From NCBI GenBank assembly GCA_963836955.1, contig CAWILO010000011.1:776715-840714 (forward strand): DNA of 64,000 nucleotides, read 5' to 3'. This document shows positions 7,024-28,201 of the stretch, in pieces. The DNA is from an uncultured delta proteobacterium. GTDB lineage: Bacteria; Desulfobacterota; Binatia; Binatales; Binataceae. Each line of letters begins with the position of its first letter. The stretch's first letter is position 1. The notes under the pieces are model-generated. The model saw nothing but the letters and a program-made list of their open reading frames with translations. It was not told the origin of the DNA and did not search any database. The translations under genes and the position numbers were made by a program.

Positions 7024-8172
7024 TCAGTAAGCGACGAATCCGCCGTTCTCGATCAGCTTCACGGGCACGCCCTCGACGTCTTTCGGCACTGCGGCTTTCG
7101 CCTGCGGGGTCATCTTCTTGACGTAAACTTCGATCGCGGGCTGACCGGGCTGGTCGCTGATCCCGATTGCGGTACCGACCGCGCCCGGGATCTTCATGAG
7201 CTCATCCTCGTGCCGGTCGCGAACCGCGGTGGCCGAATCGACGAGGTCCTTCGACATGCCAATATCCCCGGCTTGGACGTCGGCCGCCGCGGGCTCCAAG
7301 GCCACCGGCGCCGCACAAGTGCCCGTCATCGACACGCCAAGCGCGCTCAGCACATCGGAGATCGGATTCGCGATCGTCATCGATCCGTCAGCGGACCCTG
7401 CGAACAACAGCGCGACCGCCTGAGGGCAACTGTCCTGCGTTACGATCAGTGATCCAGAATCGCCGCCGCTGCTAAAACTCGAGTTGTTAATCACAACCTC
7501 GTTGATGAACTTCGCGTTTTCCCCACCGCCATAGCTTATCTTGAAATTGCCAGAAACCGACGAGATCGTGCCGAAGGTGAGGCAGGTCGTTCGGCCCATC
7601 TTTTGGACCGCCAGCCCGATCGAGGGCGTAGCCACAGTGCTATTGATCGGCCCGATATTCTGGATTTCGGGGTTCACCATTCCCGGATTCACGGCGGCGA
7701 TGGCAGCATCGATGGTGTTCTTGCCGCCTCCGAACTTGATCTTGACGGTGCGGGTGAACGTTGCAACCGCATCAGCCGGCGTCTTCGTGCAGGGTACTGC
7801 TGTGTCCACGAGTCCGGGTTGCACGATGAGCTCGCCAGACTTGGCCAGGTTTATGTCCGCAAGAACATGATTGTTGCTGAGGATGAATTTGTTGTTGATC
7901 TGGTCCTGTACCATCGACCCCAGCGTCCCGCTGAAGCACTGGCGACCATGGTGGAGGAACGCGTTGATATTTCCGCCTGACACGCCGAGGTCAAATGGGC
8001 GAGGCAACGTCGATTGTTGATTGCAGACGATGGTGATCGCGCCAGCCGGCATCGACGCGGCCCCGATCGTCAGCATGCAAATCGCCAACGCGGCCGCCGT
8101 AGTTTGATATTTCGTAGTGGGCTCCCCTCTCGGAAATCGAAATCTCAGGTTCATTAAATTATTTATATGCAT
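7024..8172 (-). CDS. secreted trypsin-like (S1 family) serine peptidase
   Basis: Signal-like TAAALAICMLTIGAASMPAGA. The serine motif is SGGDSGSLIV (GDSG) and a His region is NNHVLAD. The true start is probably the internal Met (MNL...) near 8154, because the called N-terminus lies in an AT-rich stretch. Confidence 0.5.
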   Translation of the reverse strand: MHINNLMNLRFRFPRGEPTTKYQTTAAALAICMLTIGAASMPAGAITIVCNQQSTLPRPFDLGVSGGNINAFLHHGRQCFSGTLGSMVQDQINNKFILSNNHVLADINLAKSGELIVQPGLVDTAVPCTKTPADAVATFTRTVKIKFGGGKNTIDAAIAAVNPGMVNPEIQNIGPINSTVATPSIGLAVQKMGRTTCLTFGTISSVSGNFKISYGGGENAKFINEVVINNSSFSSGGDSGSLIVTQDSCPQAVALLFAGSADGSMTIANPISDVLSALGVSMTGTCAAPVALEPAAADVQAGDIGMSKDLVDSATAVRDRHEDELMKIPGAVGTAIGISDQPGQPAIEVYVKKMTPQAKAAVPKDVEGVPVKLIENGGFVAY

Positions 8173-8357
8173 TTACAACAGAGAGTAATATCCTACACGA
8201 ACATCATTAGTTGTAGTGTTAATAAGCTGTCTGTTTGATATTATTTATAATATCTTGTAGACACCTTTGTGTGCGTTTGGGCGCCGCAGGAAAGATGCCT
8301 ACTAAACTCGGATCGCAAACCCGATTATCGGCGGTTTGCTAGCGAGGCTCGGCCCGA

Positions 8358-9119
8358 ATGTTCGGAGAGTTTCGGTATTTGTTGAGGTTCCGTATGAGCG
8401 AACCGGCAACCGCTCCAGGTGAGGCCAAACCGGCATGGCCATCGCTGCAACCGCTCGCGAAGATATTGCTCTGGGCGGCCGCAGCTCTGCTCCTGGCGCC
8501 AATGGTTTTTATCGTTGTCTTTCGGTTCGTAGCACCCCCCGTGACGCCACTGATGCTAAATCAGATCCTTCCAGGGCTATCGCATCCAACACCAATGGGT
8601 CTCTCTCAGCGCGATCGCGCCAGCGATGCGTCGAGCCGTCGTCGTTGCAGAGGACCCTCAATTCTGTGGCGAATTTATTGGGATCGATTTTCAGTCAATC
8701 GATCGCGAGATCCACGTATGGACCTCCGGCGGACGGCCCTCGGGGGCAAGCACGATCACCATGCAGACCGCTCGTAACCTATTCGAATGCCCAGGCCGCA
8801 GCTTCATTCGCAAACTTCACGAGCTCTGGATCACGCCGCAGCTTGCATTGCTCTGCCCAGGCGGCGCGTGCTCGAGGTGTATCTCAATGTCGTGGAATTC
8901 GGGCCTGGGTTGTTCGGTGTGCAAGCTGCTTCGCGTTACTACTTCGGCGAGGACGCATCGCAACTGAATGTGAAAAAGGCGACTCGGTTGGCCGCGGTGT
9001 TGCCGAACCCGCTTCACTGGTCTCCCAACAACCTCCGTCGGAAGGAACTCAGACAAACATGGGTGAATTCGATTCCGGTATTTTATGGAGACCAGGACTT
9101 GGAATGTGCAGATAGGTAA
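8358..9119 (+). pseudogene. mtgA: monofunctional biosynthetic peptidoglycan transglycosylase (MtgA) interrupted by two compensating frameshifts near 8560-8580 and 8830-8850
   Basis: Three track ORFs (8358.., 8626.., 8787..) tile one MtgA-like protein. The pieces read ILLWAAAALLLAPMVFIVVFRFVAPPVTPLML, then QWVSLSAIAPAMRRAVVVAEDPQF...GASTITMQTARNLFE, then RRVLEVYLNVVEFGPGLFGVQAASRYYFGEDASQL...AAVLPNP. Frames 1 and 3 are the same frame. Confidence 0.6.
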
Positions 9120-17408: not shown

Positions 17409-18526
17409 ATGAAAATCACCAGCAGCGTCAGGGCCAAACATCGCGGTGTGACGTATGTCGTCGCCATCCTTACGTGTTCTCTCGTGTTCGCGAAGATCGG
17501 GCAGGCCTGCACCGGCATCAGGCTCATAGCCGAGGACGGGACCGTGGTCTACGCGCGCACACTGGAGTTCGGCGTCGATCTCGACTCGGACGTGCTCATG
17601 GTGCCGCGCGGTTATGCACGAACTGGTACCACGCCACAGGGCGAGAATGGACTTAGGTGGACCTCCAAGTATGCTTCGGTCGGTGCCAATGGTGTCGGGC
17701 TGCCGTATTTGTTCGATGGTCTCAATGAGAAGGGCTTGGCCGTCGGCTTATTCTATTTTCCCACTACCGCCGGCTATGCGAGATACAACGCTGCCGAGGC
17801 CTCCAAGACGATTGCACCCTGGCAGGTCGGTTCGTGGGTTTTGGAAAATTTCGCGACGGTCGAAGAGGTCAAACAAAACATTGGAAGTGTCGCGGTCGCG
17901 GAGGTCGTATTCAAGCAATGGGGCTTCGTGCCGCCGGTGCACTTCGTGGTTCATGACGCCTCGGGCAAGAGCATCGTGATCGAATACGTTGAAGGAAAAC
18001 TCCATGTTCATGACAACGTGATAGGGGTGATGACCAATTCGCCAACCTTCGACTGGCATATGACCAATCTGCGCAACTATGTGAACTTCTCTATGGTGAA
18101 TAAACCGCCGATAGAAGTCGGCGGTGTCAGCCTGACCGCGCTTGGCCAGGGCACCGGGATGCTAGGGATGCCGGGCGATTTTACTCCGCCGTCGCGGTTC
18201 GTCCGGGCCGTGGCTTACACCACCTCGGTTCTACCTTCCAGGACCGGCGCCGAGGCGGTGCTCCAGGCATTTCACATTTTGAACAACTTCGACATTCCTG
18301 AAGGCGCTGCCCGCGAAGAAGCAGAAGGACGCGAACGGCAACATCGTCTCCGATCGCACCATCTGGACGAGTGCTGCGGACCTAAAGGCTAGGCGATTCT
18401 ATTTCCGAACTTACGAGAACAGCCAGATTCGTTCAGTGGATCTGATGAAAATGCCGCTCGCTGCCAAAGACATTGCCAGGATTTCGATGAAAGGCCCGGA
18501 GGTCATCAAATCACTGAACCCCTAAG
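17409..18526 (+). pseudogene. choloylglycine hydrolase / linear amide C-N hydrolase (Ntn hydrolase, penicillin V acylase/BSH family), frameshifted near 18310-18340
   Basis: Signal, then the nucleophile context AKIGQACTGIRL. The track ORF ends in a junk tail (EEAEGRERQHRL...). The adjacent frame reads NGNIVSDRTIWTSAADLKARRFYFRTYENSQIRSVDLMKMPL...SLNP and ends with a stop near 18526, which is the typical family C-terminus. Confidence 0.6.
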
Positions 18527-19101
18527 CGGGCTAACAGTGTCGCATGGGTGAAGCGGCGCGACCCTCTACGCTCGGTTCAGCGTTTACTGATGGCCCGGGG
18601 CACGGAGTTCGGCCCTGACGCAAGCACAGCTGGAACTTCGATTTCGAGCGGTATGCGCGACGCTATCGACCCTTGTAACGTGCCTATGCCAACCGGCTCG
18701 AATCGTGCGTCGCAGAACTCCTCGGCTGCCTTTGCAACAACCTAGCCTTCGGGGCTCTCTACCAGGATAAGGAGCCGAGGATCGAATTAGTTACCACGTA
18801 TGGCAAGGCCACGAAGAGAAGGATGATCCAGATCAACGACCGCTGCGCGCCGAGGCGAGGAGAAAACACTTAGCTATAGACAACACACGTCGGAGACTTG
18901 AACGCCTCTTTCAGAGAAGGCGCGGCCCCCGTGCCGATGGCCGCAAGGTCGGCAGCCGCGAGCGCGCGGCTTGAGCGGGCGAAGATCGAGAAGTTGCGCT
19001 CTTCAGCTCCGCAAGCCTTTGCCGTCTTGAGGCTGTGGAGGTGTTCGATCGTAACTGCATATAGCGAGGCCTTGAAATCGGACTGTTTCTGGCCCGCTTG
19101 T

Positions 19102-19710
19102 TCAATCGCTCGAGTGCGCCCGTGGAGAGCGATTTGCGAGCACTGCACCGCAGCTCAACACCAGCAGGGTCATCGCGGCAGAGAGCCGAAACGCGAGCAC
19201 GCAATACAGAGCGGTCAACAAAATATCTCCCGCAACAAGCATGATGTCGTAGGCTGCTTGTCCTATGCGATCGAGTTCGCCGGTCAGCGCATGGGTAAAA
19301 TCCGATGCTCGGCTGCGGCAAATGAACAGCCAGTCAGCGTTCGCGATCGCGCGATAGAGCCGCAGACGCATATCGAGCACAAACTGCTGCTCGACCGCGA
19401 ACATCGCCACGCTCTGCAGCCTGCCGACGATCGTTCGCAGCGCAATCAGCGCCACCCACATAGCGAGCAGAATTTCCAGTGACGGAGTGACCCCCAGAGC
19501 AGAAAATGCGCGTTCGATCACGCGCGCGTAGCCGCCCGCTGAACCTTGGCCGGCAAGGTTCATTCCCGCCGCTTCGAGGGTCGGTAGCAACAGCAGGATA
19601 CCGAAGCCTTCAGTGAGAGAGAACGCAACCATCAAGACAACCGCGCCGCCCAGACGCCATCGCGTGGCCCGCGCAAGTTGAGAGAAGAAGATGCGCGCGG
19701 TACGTCCCAT
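19102..19710 (-). pseudogene. ABC exporter transmembrane domain (type I exporter, McjD-like position). Only about 4 TM helices are present. The 3' part, including the ATPase, is absent
   Basis: 202-aa ORF with an ABC-exporter TMD-like N-terminus (RWRLGGAVVLMVAFSLTEGFGILLLLP...). No Walker/LSGGQ motifs appear in any frame in the 575 bp downstream. Confidence 0.5.
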
Positions 19711-21002
19711 TAATTCGCAGTCTGCGTCCCGCGTTGCACCAACCGGGGACTATGCAGGAGCAGGAGGCGCGCTGGGCGAGTCAAGTAATACGTCCAATAG
19801 AGCGCGCGCGGCAGCGGCAGTGCCTCCCAGTCCTCGATGGTCGGGCGCAGCCCGCGATCTATGAGGTAGCGCGCGCGCTTTTCCCATCCTTCGATCGCGT
19901 TAAGCGGCACTAGCAAGTCGGAATATACGGAAGGCACGAGTCCGGGCGCAGGAAAAAGCCGGCTGGCAATCTCGCGCGCCAGCCGCATCGCATGCGGGTC
20001 TGACACGGCACGCCCGAGCACGCTTGCGGGAACCTGCGCACCCGCAAACACGTAAGCGAGCAGTGCGCCAAGGCGCAGCATCCTGCTGCATCTGAGCCGT
20101 TCCATCTCCCACTCGTCGCGCTCCCAATCGACCAGGCCCGTGGCGGTGAGCGCGGCGATATCGCACATCGCACGCAAGGACCCCCATGCCCATCCGTGCC
20201 TGGTCGCGTGCGCGATGCTGAAGATCAAATGGTCGTCCGGAGCCAGCGTATGCATCCAGCGCCCAGCGAGCTCGACTGCAACGGCGTTGCGCCAGACCGT
20301 TTCATAGTCCGGACGGAAGGGAAAATAGATTGGCACCAACCCTAGATGCAGGTCGATCAACGGGCCGCCTTGCTTCTCGAACTGATCCTCGAAGCATCGG
20401 AAGAAACCAAAGTCCGGAGCGCCGGCTTGATGCCGCTTGGGGCGATAGCCCCGTTCCGCAAGGACCCTGCTAATCTGCGGCAAGTCGCCTTGGCGAATGA
20501 GGATATCTAAGTCGCCTGACTGACGTGCTGCGAGATCTCCGAAGGCTTGAACTGCAAGCGCTGGTCCCTTGAGCGCAAGCATCCCAAGCTGGGCCGACGC
20601 GAGCGCTTCATGAACCGCGAGGAGCTCACGCGCGAGCCGGTGATGCGCGAGCGCGTTCGCCGCGTTCCCAGCGCGAAGGCACGCGGCGATGTAGGCTGGA
20701 ACGCGCTCCACGCATTCTCGGGCCAGGAAGCTATGCACGGGAGGGATGACGAAATGCCCCGCGGCCTCAGACGCAACTCGCTCCCAGTCGAGATCACGGG
20801 CGGCGAGTGCAATCGCGCGGGCACGCGACTCAGAGGTCGCAGGCGTCGAACTGCACGCAGCGATCAGCTGCCCCTCGAGCGGCAGCGCGGCACGCAGCGA
20901 TTGGGCTATATCATCCATAAAGGGCCAGCGGTATTCTAATCGCGTCGATCCCGTCGCCATGTTACCGACCGCTCCGGGGGCAAGCGTCGTACTCTGTGCC
21001 AC
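19710..21002 (-). CDS. nucleotidyltransferase-family protein of the kind found in HPr-kinase-associated lasso peptide clusters
   Basis: GDLDILIRQGD motif. It is a clear paralogue of 53974..55164 (GDIDFLIADRHD). It overlaps B2 by 41 bp. Confidence 0.55.
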   Translation of the reverse strand: MAQSTTLAPGAVGNMATGSTRLEYRWPFMDDIAQSLRAALPLEGQLIAACSSTPATSESRARAIALAARDLDWERVASEAAGHFVIPPVHSFLARECVERVPAYIAACLRAGNAANALAHHRLARELLAVHEALASAQLGMLALKGPALAVQAFGDLAARQSGDLDILIRQGDLPQISRVLAERGYRPKRHQAGAPDFGFFRCFEDQFEKQGGPLIDLHLGLVPIYFPFRPDYETVWRNAVAVELAGRWMHTLAPDDHLIFSIAHATRHGWAWGSLRAMCDIAALTATGLVDWERDEWEMERLRCSRMLRLGALLAYVFAGAQVPASVLGRAVSDPHAMRLAREIASRLFPAPGLVPSVYSDLLVPLNAIEGWEKRARYLIDRGLRPTIEDWEALPLPRALYWTYYLTRPARLLLLHSPRLVQRGTQTAN

Positions 21003-21435
21003 GAAAGAGCTCAGCGTAGCGGCCAGATTCGAAAGCGCCGCCGATCACGATTTCGCCCATACACTCGACCCATGCGTGGGCATCGAGTCGGCCCGCCGGA
21101 CTCTTTGACGCGCCGATCCGCAATTCGCTGGGTAAACCGAGTCCGCTCAGCATACGCTGCACCGCAACCGCGCGCACCAGACAGTTGCGCCCGCCCGGAA
21201 CGCACGCGCCTGCGGCTGCGACGACCCGTCCAACACGCGCCGCAAACAGCGCTGGGTCGTCGATGTAAGGGCTCTTTCGAGCGGGCACAGCAGCCCAATC
21301 GCGCACGCGAGCGAACGACAGCAGAAGCAGCCTCGCTCGCGCTTCAAGCACGGCGAGCAGCGCCCTGGGCAGTATTATCCACTCCGCTGCGGATAATTTG
21401 CGAATTCTTTGAAAGCGAGCGAACACTGTGCTCAT
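20962..21435 (-). CDS. lasso peptide biosynthesis B2 protein (transglutaminase-like leader peptidase)
   Basis: 157 aa. Cys in VPGGRNCLVRA and the HAW motif in RLDAHAWVECMGEIV match the B2/transglutaminase-like Cys-His core as recalled from memory. Confidence 0.6.
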   Translation of the reverse strand: MSTVFARFQRIRKLSAAEWIILPRALLAVLEARARLLLLSFARVRDWAAVPARKSPYIDDPALFAARVGRVVAAAGACVPGGRNCLVRAVAVQRMLSGLGLPSELRIGASKSPAGRLDAHAWVECMGEIVIGGAFESGRYAELFRGTEYDACPRSGR

Positions 21436-21486
21436 GCCCGCGCCAATTGCGCCACGGCATTCCGAGCTTCAACGCGCACCTGAGAG

Positions 21487-22428
21487 CTAGGCACTCTCAC
21501 GATCGCAGCCGCTCATATCCGCCAGCACCATTTCGCGCAAGCCGGACAACGCCGCGAAGTCGCTCGGAAGTATGAGATTCTTTACCGGTACTTTCGCGAC
21601 GACCAGCTCGATGAATCGAAACTTACGGAGATTGGCGGCGCCATCAGTCGGATTGAACCAACACGACGCCGAAGCCAGTTCCATGAAGGCTTCGGCCTGG
21701 GAAAGCGGTTCGATTCTGGGCGAAGCTGTACGGGAGTCCGCGACGCCCTGCCGGCTCAAGCGAAAAATCCGCGTTAGCGGTTGTGGTCGGGGTGCGAAGC
21801 TTGAGTGGAGATCAAGCGCGCGTCGCTTTGAGCCATAGCCTGCGATGACGTGAGAACGAGCGGTGTCGATTTTCAGCGCTTCTAGGCTGTCGTTCTGCAG
21901 GCGCGCGCCCGGGTACCCTGGGATGAGAACGATTCGGCCCCCGCTGCTCAGACTCAGCAGGACGGAGTCGTCGCCCAGCAGCGGGAATCCTGCAAGCGCA
22001 AGGCTTGCCGCAAGCGTCGATTTCCCGGTACCGCTCGGGCCGATAAACGCGCACGCTCCGTAGTCGGTTAAAACCGCGGTCGCGTGTATCGACTCGATTC
22101 CGAACAGATCGAGAACACCCGGGATAACGGCATCGAGAAGCAGATGTCGTAGTGCTTCGGGAAAAATTTCTGCGCGTGTCCTGCAGCACTCTATCGCACG
22201 CAAAAGACAACTGCGCCCACCGGGAACGCGCGCGGTTGCGGCTGCCAAGGCTCGTACAATACGCGCCGCGAGCCAGGGTGCGGCAGCCCAATCACGCACC
22301 CGATCAATCGGTACCAGAAGCAGTCTCGTTCGCGCCAAAAGCACAGCGAGCAGTACCCTGGGCAGCCTCATCCAGTCCGCAGCGGGTAACGCGCGGAACT
22401 TTCGGATCCGGGCGAACGCAGTTCTCAT
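21487..22428 (-). CDS. in-frame chimera: an N-terminal ~78 aa homologous to the B2 protein N-terminus, fused to the C-terminal ~235 aa of an HPr-kinase-related kinase
   Basis: MRTAFARIRKFRALPAADWMRLPRVLLAVLLARTRLLLVPIDRVRDWAA...VPGGRSCLLRAIE aligns with B2 (MSTVFARFQRIRKLSAAEWIILPRALLAVLEARARLLLLSFARVRDWAA...VPGGRNCLVRAV). From CC...EALRHLLLDAVIPGVLDLFG...FIGPSGTGKSTLAAS onward it is about 75% identical to kinase 22684..23682. Confidence 0.6.
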   Translation of the reverse strand: MRTAFARIRKFRALPAADWMRLPRVLLAVLLARTRLLLVPIDRVRDWAAAPWLAARIVRALAAATARVPGGRSCLLRAIECCRTRAEIFPEALRHLLLDAVIPGVLDLFGIESIHATAVLTDYGACAFIGPSGTGKSTLAASLALAGFPLLGDDSVLLSLSSGGRIVLIPGYPGARLQNDSLEALKIDTARSHVIAGYGSKRRALDLHSSFAPRPQPLTRIFRLSRQGVADSRTASPRIEPLSQAEAFMELASASCWFNPTDGAANLRKFRFIELVVAKVPVKNLILPSDFAALSGLREMVLADMSGCDRESA

Positions 22429-22453: not shown

Positions 22454-22481
22454 ATAGGTGAGGTCGACTAGGTGAGGTCGA
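22454..22481. repeat. perfect 14-bp tandem duplication taggtgaggtcgac x2 immediately upstream of the chimeric gene
   Basis: Seen directly in ctataggtgaggtcgactaggtgaggtcgaccgtc. Confidence 0.55.
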
Positions 22482-22683
22482 CCGTCAGCACACTTCCGAG
22501 AATTTAATCTGCACCGACGTGCTCTCCTCCGGGCCAGCAAGCGACCGCAGCACGCGCGCGGCGAGATCGCACGGGGAAAGGTCGCATTGGGCATCCGGTG
22601 AACCCTACCTTAGAGGTAGCTTTTACCGGAAACACCTTACATCGACATAAACAACGGCCACAGCGTTTGGCTGACGATCACGT

Positions 22684-23682
22684 TCAACACGTCATGCCGG
22701 ATTCAGGTCTGAAGTTGTCGCGATCGCAACCACTCAAATCCGCGAGCACGATCTCGCGTACCTTGGGTAACGCGACGAAGTCATTCGGAACAACGAGCCT
22801 CCTCACTGGCACTTTCGCGACGACCTGCTCGAGGAAGTGAAATTGGCGGAGATTGGCGGCACGGTCGGTTGGATTGAACCGATAGGACGCCGAGGCCAGT
22901 TCCATGAAGGCTTCAGCGGATGACAATCGTTCAATCCTAGGTAATGCCGCAGGGGAGTCCCCGTCGTCGGACCTCCTCAGACGAAAAATCCGCGTAAGCG
23001 GCTGCGGCTGGGAGACGAAGCTCAAGTGGAAATCAAGCGCGCGTCGCTTGGAGCTATAGCCCATGATGGCGTGGGACCGAGCTGGGTCGATCCTCAGTGC
23101 CTCGAGGCTGTCGCGCCACAGACGCGTGCCTGGGTACCCGGGTGTGAGAAGGATCCGGTCGCTGCAGCTCAGGACGACGCAGTCGTCGCCCAGTAGCGGG
23201 AAGCCCGCACGTACAAAGCTTGCCGCGAGCGTCGATTTCCCGGTACCGCTCGGGCCGATAAACGCGCACGCTCCGTAATCGGTTAGAATGGCGGTCGCGT
23301 GCATCGACTGCTTTCCCATCAGATCGAGAACGTCTGGGATGACAGCGTCGAGGAGCAGATGCCGCAACGTCTCGGGTGAAACTTCTCCCCACTTAGCGCA
23401 ACATTCAATGCTGTTGCCACGCTCGCTGACGAAGAAATCGGCTACCTCGGAGAATCGCAGCAGGTACCCGTCCTTGCACTTCGCACAAAGCAGCCACTCC
23501 TGCCCATTGGCAAGGTTTCCCCGCTTAAAGATAGCGCTCGGGTCAAAGCGGATCTGTCGCGAGGTATGGAATCGCGAATAAACGACCGGGACCGTTACCC
23601 GCTCGATCCGTGTGCTTTCGCTGAGTTCGGGAAGCGCGGCGTCCGAGCTTAAGATCGCGCCGTAGATTTGGTAGATGGGCAC
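22684..23682 (-). CDS. HPr kinase/phosphorylase C-terminal-domain-like kinase (HprK-related kinase). Expected to phosphorylate the precursor/lasso peptide C-terminal Ser
   Basis: P-loop FIGPSGTGKSTLAAS, then GFPLLGDD. The start is GTG per the track. Kinases of this type occur in the paeninodin/pseudomycoidin-type lasso clusters (established knowledge, from memory). Confidence 0.65.
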   Translation of the reverse strand: MPIYQIYGAILSSDAALPELSESTRIERVTVPVVYSRFHTSRQIRFDPSAIFKRGNLANGQEWLLCAKCKDGYLLRFSEVADFFVSERGNSIECCAKWGEVSPETLRHLLLDAVIPDVLDLMGKQSMHATAILTDYGACAFIGPSGTGKSTLAASFVRAGFPLLGDDCVVLSCSDRILLTPGYPGTRLWRDSLEALRIDPARSHAIMGYSSKRRALDFHLSFVSQPQPLTRIFRLRRSDDGDSPAALPRIERLSSAEAFMELASASYRFNPTDRAANLRQFHFLEQVVAKVPVRRLVVPNDFVALPKVREIVLADLSGCDRDNFRPESGMTC

Positions 23683-24030
23683 CGATCAAGACAGATGGAA
23701 ATTCAAATTCCGAAGCGTTGCGATCAGGTAAAATGCTTTGTGGCGTTATCGGTACCTTTTGATCCAGAACCGGCGGTGATCTTCGCGATGTTGCCATACC
23801 GGATCAGCGTCGGTTTGACGTAATCGCCGCGTCGCCGAGTAGAAGTGGGGCGGTTCGCTTGCGAAACGGGCTTGTCGTCAGCTTTCACAGAAACCCTCCC
23901 CTGAAGCTCGCTTCATGCAATCCAATCATTAGCAGCGCCCACAAAAGCTACATGAGAACGGCGCGACGATGCAACCAGTGCTTCGATTTTCGAGATAAGT
24001 GTGCCTTCGCACAGAAACGAATTGTTGAGT

Positions 24031-25974
24031 CTAGTAGGTCCTCGCTCGCATCGATAGATCAGCATTTGGTCCGCGGAGAGCGGTCATCCAGATTTCCAGT
24101 CCGAACAATGCGAATATTGCCCACATGTAGTGCGCATACCTGGCGTCGCGCGCCTCGTACAGCCGCCACGCGGAGTCGCATGCCTCGCTGAATCTTTTGG
24201 CGCTCACCCACTCGACCTCCGCGTGTCCCGGGACTTGTGCTAGCCGATGTCCTACATTTTTCGTCACTCGCATAAAGACATCATCAAAAAGCGCCTTGCT
24301 CGGGCGCGTCACGATTCGTTGCGGGAGCAGCGGGCGCATTGCTTGGCGCATCAGAAGTCTCGGGCGGCCCTGGTTCCAGCGGTATTCCTCCGCGAGTCCG
24401 AGGACGAACTCTATGACTCTCCGGTCACAGAATGGGTACCGATAGTCGAATCCCAAGCGCACGGCGGTGCGTTCGAGTCCTTCCATAACGTAAGCGGTCC
24501 AGCCGTCGCGGAGCAGATTGTAAATGCTTTGAACAGCGGGAGTTTCGCGTTTAACTTCGTTGCGAGCGGCCATTACGCGATCCTTCAGAGCAATTCGGCG
24601 CGTGAAATTCGGATCGAGCCATCCTTGCCACGCATCGGTCCGGATGTGATCCCTTCCGAGCGCTCGCCGCACCAACTTCCGCAGCTGAATTGGCGCGAGC
24701 GGCCATACGCCCGAGCGCAGCAAAATATGGATAATCCCTTGCGTGACCTCGCCCGCCGCCTGGTTTCTCCGGAGCAACCGAAGCGCGCGCCAGAACCTGA
24801 TCGGATGGAAGCCACGAACCAGCGCCGCAAGGTCGCTGGAGTTTCCATCCATAACGTGATCTCCGCCATGACCGTTGAGACATACGCGCAGCCCCATGCG
24901 AGCGACCGCTCGTTCAAGGTCTTCCATCATAACGGCGTTAGGAAGTCGCGGTAACTCAAACGTCTGCCGCACGCGGTCTGCGAAGTAATCGATCTCGGGT
25001 TCGAACGGTTCGCAGCGATGTGTGGAAAAGCTCCAGGCGCGTTCGACTTCTTCGATATATTCGCGCTCGTCCGCTCTGGGATCCGAAAAAACAAGCGAGA
25101 ATGCTTCGATACGATTGCTGACCACCCCGCGCCGGCTTAGGTCGCAACCGATGCTGACGATCGACGACGAATCCAGACCGCCACTCAGCTGAGACGCGAC
25201 ATCGCCGGGCGCGCGCATCCTGCATCGAACGGCCTCGACTAGCAGCTCGCGCAAAGCATCGGCACAATCATTGTAGGACGACAGACGAATCTGCTTGACT
25301 GAACCGGGATCGAAATATCGCCGCTTTCGGATTCCGCCGCTGTCTACTGCGAGGCAGCAGCCTCCCTCGAGCCGGAACACACCGCAGATGGCGGTTTCCT
25401 CACGCGTGTAAGGACCGCCAGCCAGGAATTCACCCAGGAATGCTTCATTCGGCGAGCGCTCGATCTCCGAGTCCTCGAGGATTTGGATCAACTCCGACGC
25501 GCACAAAAACTTTTTTCCGTTAAAGTAGTAGTGGAGCGGCTTGAAACCGAGCGGATCGCGCACGCACAGCATCTTGCGCCTGCGGCTGTCCCACACCACG
25601 ATCGCAAAATCGCCGAGCAGACGGTTCCAAGTTTCCTCATTCCAAAGCTCGAAGCATCGTCCGACGAGCTCTACGTCGGTCGGTTCATCCAGCGTAACGC
25701 CCGAAGATTCCAGTTCTCGCGCGAGTTCCCTTCGGTTGTCGATGCGTCCGTCGAAGATAACTCGGATGGTCGCGTCCGCGTTGACCCAGGGCTGCTCCTC
25801 GTGCATGGCCTCGGGCGTGGTGGCGAGCTTGCGAAACGCCAGGCCGGCCGCACCTTCGGTCCAGTACCAGACACCGTCGGGACCCCGATCGCGCACCGCG
25901 TCGGCCATCGCGCGCAGCGAAGCCCGCTCGGCCGGCCGCTCGTCGACGTTGAATATCCCTGCTATTGCGCTCAT
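24031..25974 (-). CDS. asparagine synthetase (AsnB)-family protein, a putative lasso peptide cyclase (C protein)
   Basis: 647 aa. The N-terminus MSAIAGIF is AsnB-like but has Ser where AsnB has the Cys2 nucleophile (MCGI). That is consistent with a cyclase that does not hydrolyse glutamine. The SGGLDSS PP-loop ATP-pyrophosphatase motif is present. It overlaps the PqqD gene by 4 bp. Confidence 0.7.
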   Translation of the reverse strand: MSAIAGIFNVDERPAERASLRAMADAVRDRGPDGVWYWTEGAAGLAFRKLATTPEAMHEEQPWVNADATIRVIFDGRIDNRRELARELESSGVTLDEPTDVELVGRCFELWNEETWNRLLGDFAIVVWDSRRRKMLCVRDPLGFKPLHYYFNGKKFLCASELIQILEDSEIERSPNEAFLGEFLAGGPYTREETAICGVFRLEGGCCLAVDSGGIRKRRYFDPGSVKQIRLSSYNDCADALRELLVEAVRCRMRAPGDVASQLSGGLDSSSIVSIGCDLSRRGVVSNRIEAFSLVFSDPRADEREYIEEVERAWSFSTHRCEPFEPEIDYFADRVRQTFELPRLPNAVMMEDLERAVARMGLRVCLNGHGGDHVMDGNSSDLAALVRGFHPIRFWRALRLLRRNQAAGEVTQGIIHILLRSGVWPLAPIQLRKLVRRALGRDHIRTDAWQGWLDPNFTRRIALKDRVMAARNEVKRETPAVQSIYNLLRDGWTAYVMEGLERTAVRLGFDYRYPFCDRRVIEFVLGLAEEYRWNQGRPRLLMRQAMRPLLPQRIVTRPSKALFDDVFMRVTKNVGHRLAQVPGHAEVEWVSAKRFSEACDSAWRLYEARDARYAHYMWAIFALFGLEIWMTALRGPNADLSMRARTY

Positions 25975-26270
25975 CTGCTGTTTCGCCCGTGGGCGGGCAA
26001 CTTAGCCGCAGCCTTGATCAGACCTTCCTTCGAGAGTTCATCTATGAGTTCGTCGAAATCACGCTCAACCTCGTCGCGGGAAGCGTTGTATTGGGTGGCT
26101 ACGGTTTGCAGGATCTCTTCGCGCCTTCGGCCGTCCGCGATCAAGGTCCAGATGCGTGCGCCGACCCGCTCCAGCCCGAAATAGATGCCAGTATCGAGCT
26201 TGAGGATTACCACCTCGTCACCGAGGTCGGTCCAGGTCACTTCGTCGACAATTCGAAGGGCATTCGTCAC
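25971..26270 (-). CDS. PqqD-family protein (RiPP recognition element; lasso B1)
   Basis: 99 aa. LRIVDEVTWTDLGDEVVILKLDTGIYFGLERVGARIWTLI is a typical PqqD/RRE fold sequence. GTG start per the track. Confidence 0.65.
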   Translation of the reverse strand: MTNALRIVDEVTWTDLGDEVVILKLDTGIYFGLERVGARIWTLIADGRRREEILQTVATQYNASRDEVERDFDELIDELSKEGLIKAAAKLPAHGRNSR

Positions 26271-26323: not shown

Positions 26324-28201
26324 TCAGATCGGCCGGACCACTCCGATCGGCATGGCACCAGGCGCTGCACCCACGCCCGAAGGTTCACGTGGCACGAGTT
26401 CCTGCGTCTCGTTCAGCTCCATCGAGAATCTCCGCACCGGTATTCCGTGCGTCCGCCCAAAGCGGCGAAGTCTTTCCATCTGCTCGGCACCGAGCTCTTC
26501 GTCGGCCACGATGATCTCGGTGAACGGCACCCGCGTGTGGATGGACTCGATGTCCTCGGGTGTGCCGAGCACTTCCTCTCCGTCCAAGATTTTGCCGTGC
26601 TTGAATGCGTCCCTGTCGACGAATCCAACAACGCGGGCCGAGCGCGCGCGCGCCTTCAAGATGAATTCCGCAGCCACGGTTCCGATTTCTCCGGCTCCCA
26701 CCACTAACACCCTGTTCGTGACGGTCGCGAGGCGGTTGATCAGCTTGCGCAGCACCTGGAACGACATCCGCGTCGCGACCAAAAGGTTGACCAGCAGGAG
26801 CGCATACAGCACCGCAATTGATCCGGAATGCCTGATGGGCAGGAAATCGGAGCCAATCGCCACCAAGATTCCCGCGATTATCGCGCCGCCGGCGAAACGG
26901 AAGCTGTCCGTGAGACCCGCGTAGCGCCAGATTCCACGATAGACGCCCGCGAGCAGAAAGGCGGGGTACGTCAGCAGGATCACCCACGGCAGCCCGCGGA
27001 CCATCGATGCGAGCACCTCGGGCGTGAACTTGAAGTCAAGCCGCAACGCGCACGCGCCGAAGTATGCCGCGCTGATCAGCGCGGTGTCCATCGCCGCCTC
27101 TGCAATTCGACGTTTGTAGCCGAGAGAAAGAATGTACCGTGCTAGCCCCTGAAGGTAGCCGTACGCCACGCTCGGGGGGCTTGAGTCGAAGGTCAAATCG
27201 ATGAGGAAAAGCGCAATCACCGCTGCCGCGAGGGCGATGAACGGCAGCGCCGCAACGACGTCCGCATGTGGCAACAGGTTCGCCGCAATCGCGCATCCGG
27301 CGGCGACCGCGGCCACCGCCCAAATCGACGCGACAACCCGCCACTCCGTCAATCCGAGCGAGAGCAGCCGATCGTGGACGTGCTCCAATCCGTGCCGCGA
27401 AATCGCCTTTCCGGTGGCCAGCCGAGCCGCCGTCACGATCCCCGCGTCGAGCAATGGCACCAGCATTACCAGCAGCGGAAAGATCCACAGAGTGAGCCGC
27501 GAGTTCGCCGCGAGTGCTCCTCCTTGAATAGCCAGCACACCGAGCATGTATCCGATCGGGAGCGCACCGGCGTCGCCCATGATGATCGATGCGGGAGGGA
27601 GATTGAAGATAAGAAACCCCCCCAGCGCTCCCGCGACAGCGAGGCTCGGCGCGGTCACCGCGGGCATTCCAAGCACGATGCCGATCGTCGCAATCGCAGC
27701 GGTGACCATAATTCCTATCCCTGCCGCGAGACCGTCGAGTCCGTCCACGAGGTTGAACGCGTTGGTCGTTGCGATTAGCCAGAAGATGGTGATCCCGACG
27801 TCCAGCAATTGCCAGGGAGTGAACGCGTAATGTGGCAGCGCGAAGATCGCGGCCAACGTGATGATCGCAAGCTGGCACAAAAACTTCTGTCCGGGGCTCA
27901 GCACCAGCGCATCATCTACCAGACCGACCATCAGCATCGCCCCGGCGCCGATCGCCATCCACCAGTCCAGGTGGCCGGTTACCGCGAGGGCGACGATGAT
28001 CGAGGCGACAATCGATATGCCGCCCGTAGCAGGAACTCGCGCATCGCTGAGCGGCGAGGCTACCCTCGCGGTGATGCGCATCCACCGGCCAATGCGCGTT
28101 GTCACAGGCATCGTAACAATCGCTGTCAAGAACGCGATTGCAGCCGTCGTCCACGGATTTGTTAGAAGGTCGTACATGGTTGAGCTCATCAAGGCCTGCA
28201 T
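26324..28201 (-). CDS. initiating polyprenyl-phosphate HexNAc-1-phosphate transferase (WecA/MraY family, GT4-type) fused to a C-terminal Rossmann-like domain
   Basis: Multi-TM N-terminal part with NAFNLVDGLDGLAAG and IIMGDAGALPIGYMLG (WecA/MraY signatures). The C-terminal 160 aa (VLVVGAGEIGTVAAEFIL...VVGFVDRD) are nucleotide-binding-like. Confidence 0.6.
   Translation of the reverse strand: MQALMSSTMYDLLTNPWTTAAIAFLTAIVTMPVTTRIGRWMRITARVASPLSDARVPATGGISIVASIIVALAVTGHLDWWMAIGAGAMLMVGLVDDALVLSPGQKFLCQLAIITLAAIFALPHYAFTPWQLLDVGITIFWLIATTNAFNLVDGLDGLAAGIGIMVTAAIATIGIVLGMPAVTAPSLAVAGALGGFLIFNLPPASIIMGDAGALPIGYMLGVLAIQGGALAANSRLTLWIFPLLVMLVPLLDAGIVTAARLATGKAISRHGLEHVHDRLLSLGLTEWRVVASIWAVAAVAAGCAIAANLLPHADVVAALPFIALAAAVIALFLIDLTFDSSPPSVAYGYLQGLARYILSLGYKRRIAEAAMDTALISAAYFGACALRLDFKFTPEVLASMVRGLPWVILLTYPAFLLAGVYRGIWRYAGLTDSFRFAGGAIIAGILVAIGSDFLPIRHSGSIAVLYALLLVNLLVATRMSFQVLRKLINRLATVTNRVLVVGAGEIGTVAAEFILKARARSARVVGFVDRDAFKHGKILDGEEVLGTPEDIESIHTRVPFTEIIVADEELGAEQMERLRRFGRTHGIPVRRFSMELNETQELVPREPSGVGAAPGAMPIGVVRPI

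Follow-up and report, generated by a model that had tools for sequence, protein, structure and literature searches.

A B2–kinase chimeric gene at a tandem-duplication junction in the lasso-peptide cluster of an uncultured delta proteobacterium

The chimeric gene and the cluster around it

The DNA studied here, called the window, is a stretch of 64,000 nucleotides from an uncultured delta proteobacterium of the Binataceae (GenBank assembly GCA_963836955.1, contig CAWILO010000011.1, positions 776,715 to 840,714). It contains a lasso-peptide cluster on the minus strand, with the gene order B1-C-A-K-[chimera]-B2-N-D. The gene in brackets is an open reading frame (ORF) of 313 codons at 21487-22428 (-), open throughout, which joins the beginning of the leader peptidase B2 to the C-terminal part of the tailoring kinase K. 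Intact copies of K and B2 flank it, K as the parent upstream and B2 as the parent downstream.

In BLASTP comparisons, residues 1-79 of the chimera matched residues 1-90 of B2 (54% identity, E 2e-19) with a single gap of 11 residues, and the match takes in VPGGR(S/N)CL(L/V)RA. The original prediction, made from the sequence of the window, would have been given up had this likeness fallen below 30% identity over fewer than 40 residues; it extends at 54% over 79 residues. Residues 78-312 matched residues 91-323 of K (E 3e-116), including the P-loop GPSGTGKST; the likeness to the kinase had been put at about 75% identity, and the likeness stands while the figure measured is 71%. With the hidden Markov models (HMMs) built here, the chimera maps as B2[1-94] followed by KC[2-230], the kinase catalytic domain, and the profile of the kinase N-domain (KN) is absent. 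The Cys of B2 is retained (C74) and the whole His/Asp half of that protein is missing; likewise, the kinase catalytic domain is retained and the kinase N-domain is missing. The BLASTP matches, the DNA repeats described below and the HMM map confirm the predicted in-frame B2(N)::kinase(C) fusion. They also confirm that the VPGGR(S/N)CL(L/V)RA context and the P-loop lie in their respective halves, and that the B2 Cys and the kinase ATP site were kept while the B2 His half and the kinase N-domain were lost.

The same composition is seen in the DNA. A repeat of kinase type (21953-22194 with 23168-23409, 80% identity) and one of B2 type (22195-22269 with 21169-21243, 79%) abut exactly at 22194|22195, which places the breakpoint expected near 22190-22200 to the nucleotide; in the protein, the junction reads C74-L-L-R-A78 | I79-E-C-C. 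The abutting homologies, together with the flanking parents, bear out the proposal that the chimera came from a duplication inside the cluster, and demonstrate, as far as sequence comparison can, an origin by tandem duplication with intragenic breakpoints.

Table 1. Features of the lasso cluster and of the chimeric gene in the window, in cluster order.
Feature	Position	Strand	Basis or remark
B1, PqqD-type RiPP (ribosomally synthesised and post-translationally modified peptide) recognition element	25971..26270	-	PF05402 PqqD, E 9e-17
C, lasso macrolactam cyclase, Asn-synthase-like	24031..25974	-	PF00733 and GATase_7
A, precursor peptide	23724..23888	-	NF033521 lasso leader, 20.7 bits (cut-off 19)
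K, full-length HprK-like lasso tailoring kinase	22684..23682	-	weak Hpr_kinase_C and HprK_rel_A matches; KN+KC by HMM
Insertion into the K 3' end, about 205 nt	22503..22707	-	spacer comparison across loci; window/L001 lineage only
Relic of the ancestral K 3' end (..FSEVC stop), stranded in the spacer	22485..22502	-	aligns with K 3' ends of L002, L004 and L007
B2-derived part of the chimera, residues 1-78	22195..22428	-	54% identity to B2; DNA repeats D3 and D4
Kinase-derived part of the chimera, residues 79-313	21487..22194	-	last N-domain strand and complete HprK/P-like catalytic domain
Chimera-to-B2 spacer, diverged second copy of the K-to-B2 spacer	21436..21486	-	orthologous to that between chimera and B2 in L004
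B2, full-length lasso leader peptidase	20962..21435	-	PF13471 Transglut_core3, E 5e-20
N, PsmN-type nucleotidyltransferase-fold tailoring enzyme	19710..21002	-	PF14907 NTP_transf_5, E 8e-47
D, ABC (ATP-binding cassette) exporter remnant	18921..19710	-	tblastn with the intact L004 exporter; weak ABC_membrane match

By its gene content (C, A, K, B1, B2, N and D), the cluster matches the paeninodin/pseudomycoidin type. The split B1 (PqqD) and B2 (transglutaminase-like) proteins and the Asn-synthase-like C are all present in the window (PF05402, PF13471 and PF00733). B1 scores 51.7 and 45.7 bits with the NCBIfam models of lasso PqqD chaperones, under the curated cut-offs, and C scores 388 bits (E 7e-116) with the lasso cyclase model NF033535, short of its cut-off of 525; B2 reaches 80.9 bits with NF033537 (lasso_biosyn_B2), for which the cut-off is 33. 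The start codon of A is uncertain. Its leader, ...YVKPTLIRYGNIAKITA, fits the YxxPxLx3Gx5Tx motif, and the predicted core, GSGSKGTDNATKHFT, starts GSGSKGTD and ends ...KHFT, with a G1-D8 ring and a C-terminal Thr, so that A combines the N-terminal Gly, the Asp or Glu at position 7-9 and the leader motif expected of a lasso precursor. In clusters of this type, the precursor is phosphorylated by K, and addition of a hexose to the phosphate depends on N, which resembles NTP transferases (PMC9266682, PMC6993621). Both K and the NTP_transf_5 enzyme N are present here, the latter in the position of psmN (PMC6993621), next to an exporter gene of which residues 1-263 of about 596 are left, with a frameshift near 19134. 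In the related locus L001, the exporter is truncated at the same residue, 263 of about 596, without the frameshift of the window.

The conserved C-terminal Ser, which accepts the phosphate in all characterised lasso clusters with a kinase, is not present in the predicted core of the window, which ends in Thr, nor in those of the relatives, which end in T, P, D or A. The assay proposed in the original prediction, kinase activity on a Ser-terminated peptide, is ill-suited to a cluster whose predicted core ends in Thr. Ser or Thr is frequent at core position 2 in the precursors of the clade (window, L003, L004, L006, L007 and L008). Among the precursors compared, the presence of the chimera followed no pattern with the C-terminal residue or the Ser/Thr count. 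The PDB contains no protein related in sequence to the lasso kinase or to B2.

The exporter remnant is followed by a gene of the choloylglycine hydrolase family (17409-18392, +). At its other end, the cluster adjoins polysaccharide-synthesis genes, at 26324-28201 (-) and upstream (Glycos_transf_4/CoA_binding_3, an epimerase and a WecG-type transferase), a neighbourhood also found in L001, L003, L004, L006, L041 and L042. Paeninodin-like clusters of Bacilli are reported to be similarly embedded in capsular polysaccharide loci (PMC13381572, 2026).

Constraint and possible role of the chimera

The gene is not confined to the window. A chimera with the same junction was found at seven other loci, L001-L006 and L041, from at least six independent assemblies, and the ORF is intact in eight loci, the indels seen being multiples of three. 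Proteins matching the window chimera over its full length are P0001 (96%), P0002 (76%), P0003 (62%) and P0004 (60%); their contigs, the metagenome-assembled genome L006 and the JGI contig L041 keep the order B1-C-A-K-chimera-B2-N(-D), and the chimera-bearing loci have upstream glycosyltransferase and epimerase genes in common. A search of 1.84 billion representative proteins returned just two 50%-identity clusters that cover the full chimera, and no full-length match outside the clade. Searches for sequences identical to the chimera, C or K of the window gave no match. The entry P0117, with an apparent match from residue 7 of the chimera, proved to be an ordinary kinase.

The kinase half of the chimera has been maintained by selection. 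Between chimera orthologues, its ratio of nonsynonymous to synonymous substitution rates (dN/dS) is 0.20-0.47, and between true K orthologues 0.19-0.33. Pooled over two phylogenetically independent pairs, the proportion of nonsynonymous differences (pN) is 0.171 and that of synonymous differences (pS) 0.406 (Fisher p = 3e-18), with synonymous divergences of 0.4-0.9. These comparisons establish, at the level of sequence, purifying selection on an intact catalytic domain. Residues H115, K136, D153 and D154 are invariant in the 15 kinases and chimeras aligned; the corresponding His-Lys-Asp-Asp set is reported to be essential in lasso kinases, as shown in ThcoK (PMC9266682). Of the positions at least 85% conserved across the kinase family, the window chimera keeps 32/32. 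That the constraint is a by-product of gene conversion from K is ruled out by the identities, since the window chimera is 78% identical to the second chimera of L002 and 71% to its own K, and that second chimera is 59% identical to the K of its own locus.

Structure prediction points the same way. The AlphaFold2 model of residues 90-308 has good confidence for the most part (predicted local distance difference test, pLDDT, above 70 over most of the stretch), and the best Foldseek matches of residues ~90-308 are to the catalytic domain of HprK/P (2qmh, 1kkm and 1jb1, E about 1e-6). In the model of full-length K (pLDDT 91), an eight-stranded all-beta N-domain takes up residues 1-97 and the catalytic domain starts from the helix at 103-121; of the eight strands, the chimera has only the last. 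An HMM of this N-domain (all-beta, about 95 residues, with a YxxYG...PEL motif) is not matched by the chimera and is matched by the kinases of all 46 related loci. Across the related loci, the N-domain evolves far faster than the catalytic domain, with 43-48% against 62-81% identity to the window K in the same proteins, which would fit the recognition of a variable precursor.

The chimera is most likely a second ATP-dependent tailoring kinase that works without the kinase N-domain. It would be expressed, the B2 piece mainly giving translation initiation and a loosely constrained N-terminal extension. A kinase without its N-domain is plausible because the isolated C-terminal catalytic domain of L. 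casei HprK/P is active. Lacking this domain, the chimera probably differs from K in the state or site of its substrate, for instance by adding further phosphates or acting on another hydroxyl, and it might co-assemble with K. That the kinase family can use a Ser other than the C-terminal one is known from LppK (PMC13381572). The full account, which combines the tandem-duplication origin, the later history set out in the next section and a second tailoring kinase, appears to us fairly probable.

Several observations weigh against it. Both breakpoints are intradomain, B2 being cut just past the start of the Cys helix and K before the last N-domain strand. The B2-derived part is weakly constrained (pN/pS 0.237/0.335, p = 0.04), residues 1-78 are modelled by AlphaFold2 at pLDDT 30-43, and the B2 Cys has changed to Gly in P0002 and to Phe in P0003. 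In the subgroup of chimeras typified by L004, the join left a partial internal duplication of 25 residues, and four family-conserved residues were lost (V132F, R187W, K212E and F281L). The truncated exporter may be a sign of decay in the window copy of the cluster, although constraint is seen in the family of chimeras at large, and the close relatives L007, L042 and L043 manage without the gene.

Much of this would also be expected of a non-functional junction ORF, open by chance or translated just to keep B2 and N expressed downstream: the weak constraint and poor modelling of the B2-derived part, the Cys lost in two lineages, the damaging-looking changes of the L004 type, the absence of the gene in close relatives and the exporter pseudogene of the window. 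Against such a by-product speak the strong amino-acid constraint on the kinase half at synonymous divergences of 0.4-0.9 (p = 3e-18), every catalytic and family-conserved residue being present in the window type, and a frame open in eight loci with indels in multiples of three; translational coupling alone would not preserve an amino-acid sequence. L004-type chimeras are themselves still constrained (dN/dS 0.28, first copy of L002 against L004). We regard this explanation as unlikely, though not negligible.

The B2-derived segment is, judging by its sequence, not a peptidase. The chimera matches neither PF13471 nor NF033537 and covers only positions 1-94 of the B2 profile; the Cys-His-Asp triad of a complete transglutaminase-like core is not found in it, and it cannot be a peptidase because the His/Asp half of B2 is absent. 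A different use of the segment can be imagined. As a docking module, the B2-derived N-terminus would place the kinase domain on the maturation complex of B1, B2 and C or at the point where leader and core meet, so that a co-opted targeting element would tie phosphorylation to leader cleavage and cyclisation and aim it away from the canonical C-terminal Ser. The B2-family positions RVRDW, AAR and PGGR are retained in all chimeras, and in L003 (7099-8607) the reading frame of the chimera continues through full-length B2 to encode a B2N-kinase-B2 protein of 484 residues (P0003), which hints at physical association; the fusion is seen on a single contig and may be a sequencing error. However, the contact between B1 and B2 is reported as a beta-sandwich interaction (PMC13381572), and a helical N-terminal B2 fragment, as suggested by the general B2 fold and the low-confidence model of the chimera, would lack it. 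Moreover, the fragment is a piece of what was one compact domain, its model is disordered, and its constraint is just marginal. We think docking somewhat less likely even than the by-product. If it were true, a RiPP tailoring enzyme would have been re-targeted by an exon-shuffling-like recombination between two enzymes of one pathway, and the L003 fusion would take this trend one step further.

Duplication, single origin and later history

In the account that we prefer, a tandem duplication in the ancestor of a small clade of uncultured bacteria would have copied a segment of about 1 kb from the middle of K to the middle of B2, made up of the catalytic domain of K, the spacer and B2 up to about codon 90. 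Both parents would have been spared, and the junction would have made a new in-frame gene that starts at the start codon of B2, runs for about 80 B2 residues and continues into the HprK/P-like catalytic domain of K, which is complete. Across the loci, the repeat unit (KC, spacer and B2N, about 1 kb) is seen as such, in one copy in L007, L042, L043 and L008, in two in the window and others, and in three in L002. All 38 of the other related loci have a normal KN+KC kinase and no chimera by the HMM map, which supports the proposal that a single kinase-B2 pair is the ancestral state and shows it to be the prevailing one, and in every chimera-less locus checked for B2 (L007, L008, L042 and L043) K is directly followed by B2.

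The original prediction had assumed an internal deletion after the duplication. This is unnecessary, because a single duplication with breakpoints in mid-kinase and mid-B2 gives the order kinase, spacer, B2N::KC, spacer, B2, the repeated unit being KC-spacer-B2N. In the two-step route, the whole [K-B2] pair was duplicated in tandem and a deletion later ran from the middle of B2 in copy 1 to the middle of K in copy 2. It yields the observed order K, B2N::KC, B2, and the final sequence is the same under both routes; nevertheless, it calls for two events where one is enough, its intermediate K-B2-K-B2 occurs in none of the related loci, and what is repeated in the loci, with a re-amplification in L002, is the unit of the one-step route. 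We consider it improbable.

A single origin of the chimera and its persistence are well established from the sequences compared. All chimeras share the junction (LRAI|ECC, IRMA|EYC or VRAI|EYC) and a deletion, 10-11 residues long, of the B2 loop ARKSPYIDDP, which argues for one origin. The prediction had implied a local event in one genome; with the same junction and deletion at seven other loci, the chimera must instead be old. The prediction would also have been contradicted by a fused architecture conserved in related genomes as an independent family. The architecture is indeed conserved, and it is not an independent family, given that the kinase half nests in the clade's own kinases. When the kinase C-domains were compared by neighbour joining, the halves from the chimeras formed one group (61% bootstrap) inside the kinases of the clade and beside the K genes of the window, L001 and L007 (80%), with the outgroups excluded at 100%. 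The tree of the B2 part was unresolved (bootstraps of 7-39%) and was kept out of the inference.

The distribution of the gene is uneven. In the trees of C and N, the chimera-less L007 falls inside the chimera-bearing set with 100% support; L042, also chimera-less, has the chromosomal and upstream context of the window, and L043 has no chimera either. The C and N genes of L042 and L043 likewise nest among those of loci with a chimera. On the simplest reading, the single K-B2 pair of L007, L042 and L043 probably arose when the repeats recombined with each other and the duplication collapsed. Lateral spread or exchange of the chimera, or of clusters, by recombination is a possible alternative, as the gene trees conflict between markers. 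L007 and L043 have an upstream context unlike that of the window, with an NTP_transf_5 gene on the opposite strand.

Misassembled repeats are a general risk in metagenomes, yet nothing else favours an assembly artefact or an ancient fusion family unrelated to its neighbours, and both are effectively refuted: an assembler could not mistake for each other copies that are only 71-80% identical, assemblies from ENA, NCBI, JGI and Logan agree on the architecture, the kinase half branches among the local K genes, and a full-length match outside the clade is lacking. Its recurrence at seven further loci also excludes a chance origin of the architecture.

After its birth, the chimera appears to have had a varied history. 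L002 (GCA_052916045.1, 857-2966) carries two chimeras in tandem, in the order K, CH1, CH2, B2, of which CH1 belongs with the L004-type chimeras and CH2 with those like the window's. Both may have been present in the ancestor, or the array may have been re-amplified; in the latter case, the unit would have been amplified again in the L002 lineage to give two chimeras. The L004-type chimeras (L002 CH1, L004 at 7989-9098, L005, L006 and L041) are mosaics, chimera-like in the 5' two-thirds and nearer to the K of their own locus in the 3' third, which would have been patched by recombination with that K. Apparent frameshifts were noted in L001 (6687-6957 and 7943-7990), affecting the N-domain of K and the chimera around its codon 12, and P0143 is a frameshifted fragment of an L001-type chimera; these are possibly errors of long-read sequencing or assembly and not real decay. 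Another mode of duplication is seen in P0131 (685 aa) from the representative library, an unrelated protein in which two complete HprK-like lasso-type kinases are fused head to tail.

The spacers keep further traces of the duplication. The three spacers of L002 can be aligned with one another and also with the one spacer between K and B2 in L007, which has no chimera, and the chimera-to-B2 spacer of the window is recognisably related to the K-to-chimera type. The two spacers of the window itself (255 nt and 51 nt) cannot be aligned with each other because of the insertion in the 3' end of K, which now supplies the last 7 codons of K and its stop. This insertion has no second copy elsewhere in the window and no Rfam match; neither the locus nor the window in its full length had any match in Rfam scans. 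A 14-nt tandem duplication (GTCGACCTCACCTA x2) at 22455-22482 is found in the window and L001 only. In the long spacer, neither a scan for promoters and terminators nor RNA folding showed anything remarkable (z = -1.3).

Known systems and implications

The HprK-like kinases of lasso peptides (PadeK, ThcoK, SyanK and PsmK), together with LppK of the linear polyphosphorylated peptides, are encoded beside a precursor in split-B clusters with a PsmN-type gene, and have the P-loop HprK/P-like catalytic domain that the chimera shares. The His-Lys-Asp-Asp residues of ThcoK and the Asp-Asp pair mutated in PsmK are both present in it (PMC9266682, PMC6993621). Unlike these kinases, however, the chimera has about 78 residues of B2 in place of the all-beta N-domain and coexists with a normal K, and the precursors of its clade are without the conserved C-terminal Ser acceptor targeted by PadeK, ThcoK and PsmK. 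With lasso B2 proteins (Transglut_core3, NF033537), the window chimera has in common the first ~78 residues and PGGRxC with the nucleophile Cys; it differs from them in the missing C-terminal half, with the His and Asp of the triad, and in that the Cys is not conserved among chimera orthologues. The likeness to the catalytic domain of HprK/P is that of a P-loop kinase fold related to PEPCK, whereas identity is just 13-18%, there is no phosphotransferase system (PTS) context, and the Pfam and NCBIfam scores fall far under the family cut-offs. In the literature searched, no lasso cluster was found described as having a second kinase, a truncated one or one fused to B2.

Chimeric genes at tandem-duplication junctions with intragenic breakpoints are known from studies of bacterial amplification and of new genes in eukaryotes. 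The present gene resembles them in that its 5' part derives from the downstream neighbour and its 3' part from the upstream one, with both parents intact, and in a unit whose copy number varies between relatives and collapses in some. It departs from typical junction genes in persisting through large divergence (identities down to 60%), in having one half under clear purifying selection and in lying inside a natural-product cluster. Taken together, our results identify the chimera, by its sequence, as a paralogue of the lasso tailoring kinase with a swapped N-domain, which arose at the junction of a duplication and is confined to a small clade.

The locus offers a clean natural record of gene birth, in which the parents, the junction, the repeat unit and re-amplification are visible, along with a patch from one paralogue to another, a secondary fusion and a probable collapse; the new gene has one half under clear purifying selection and another half that drifts. 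For the family, it means that a small clade of lasso clusters has two kinase genes, one of them without the usual N-domain, and precursors without the canonical C-terminal Ser acceptor. A comparison of K with the chimera would be a direct test of the role of the kinase N-domain. Given a kinase lacking this domain and the absence of the Ser acceptor, the chemistry of the products, in the site and number of phosphorylations and in the later PsmN-type modification, may differ from that of paeninodin and pseudomycoidin.

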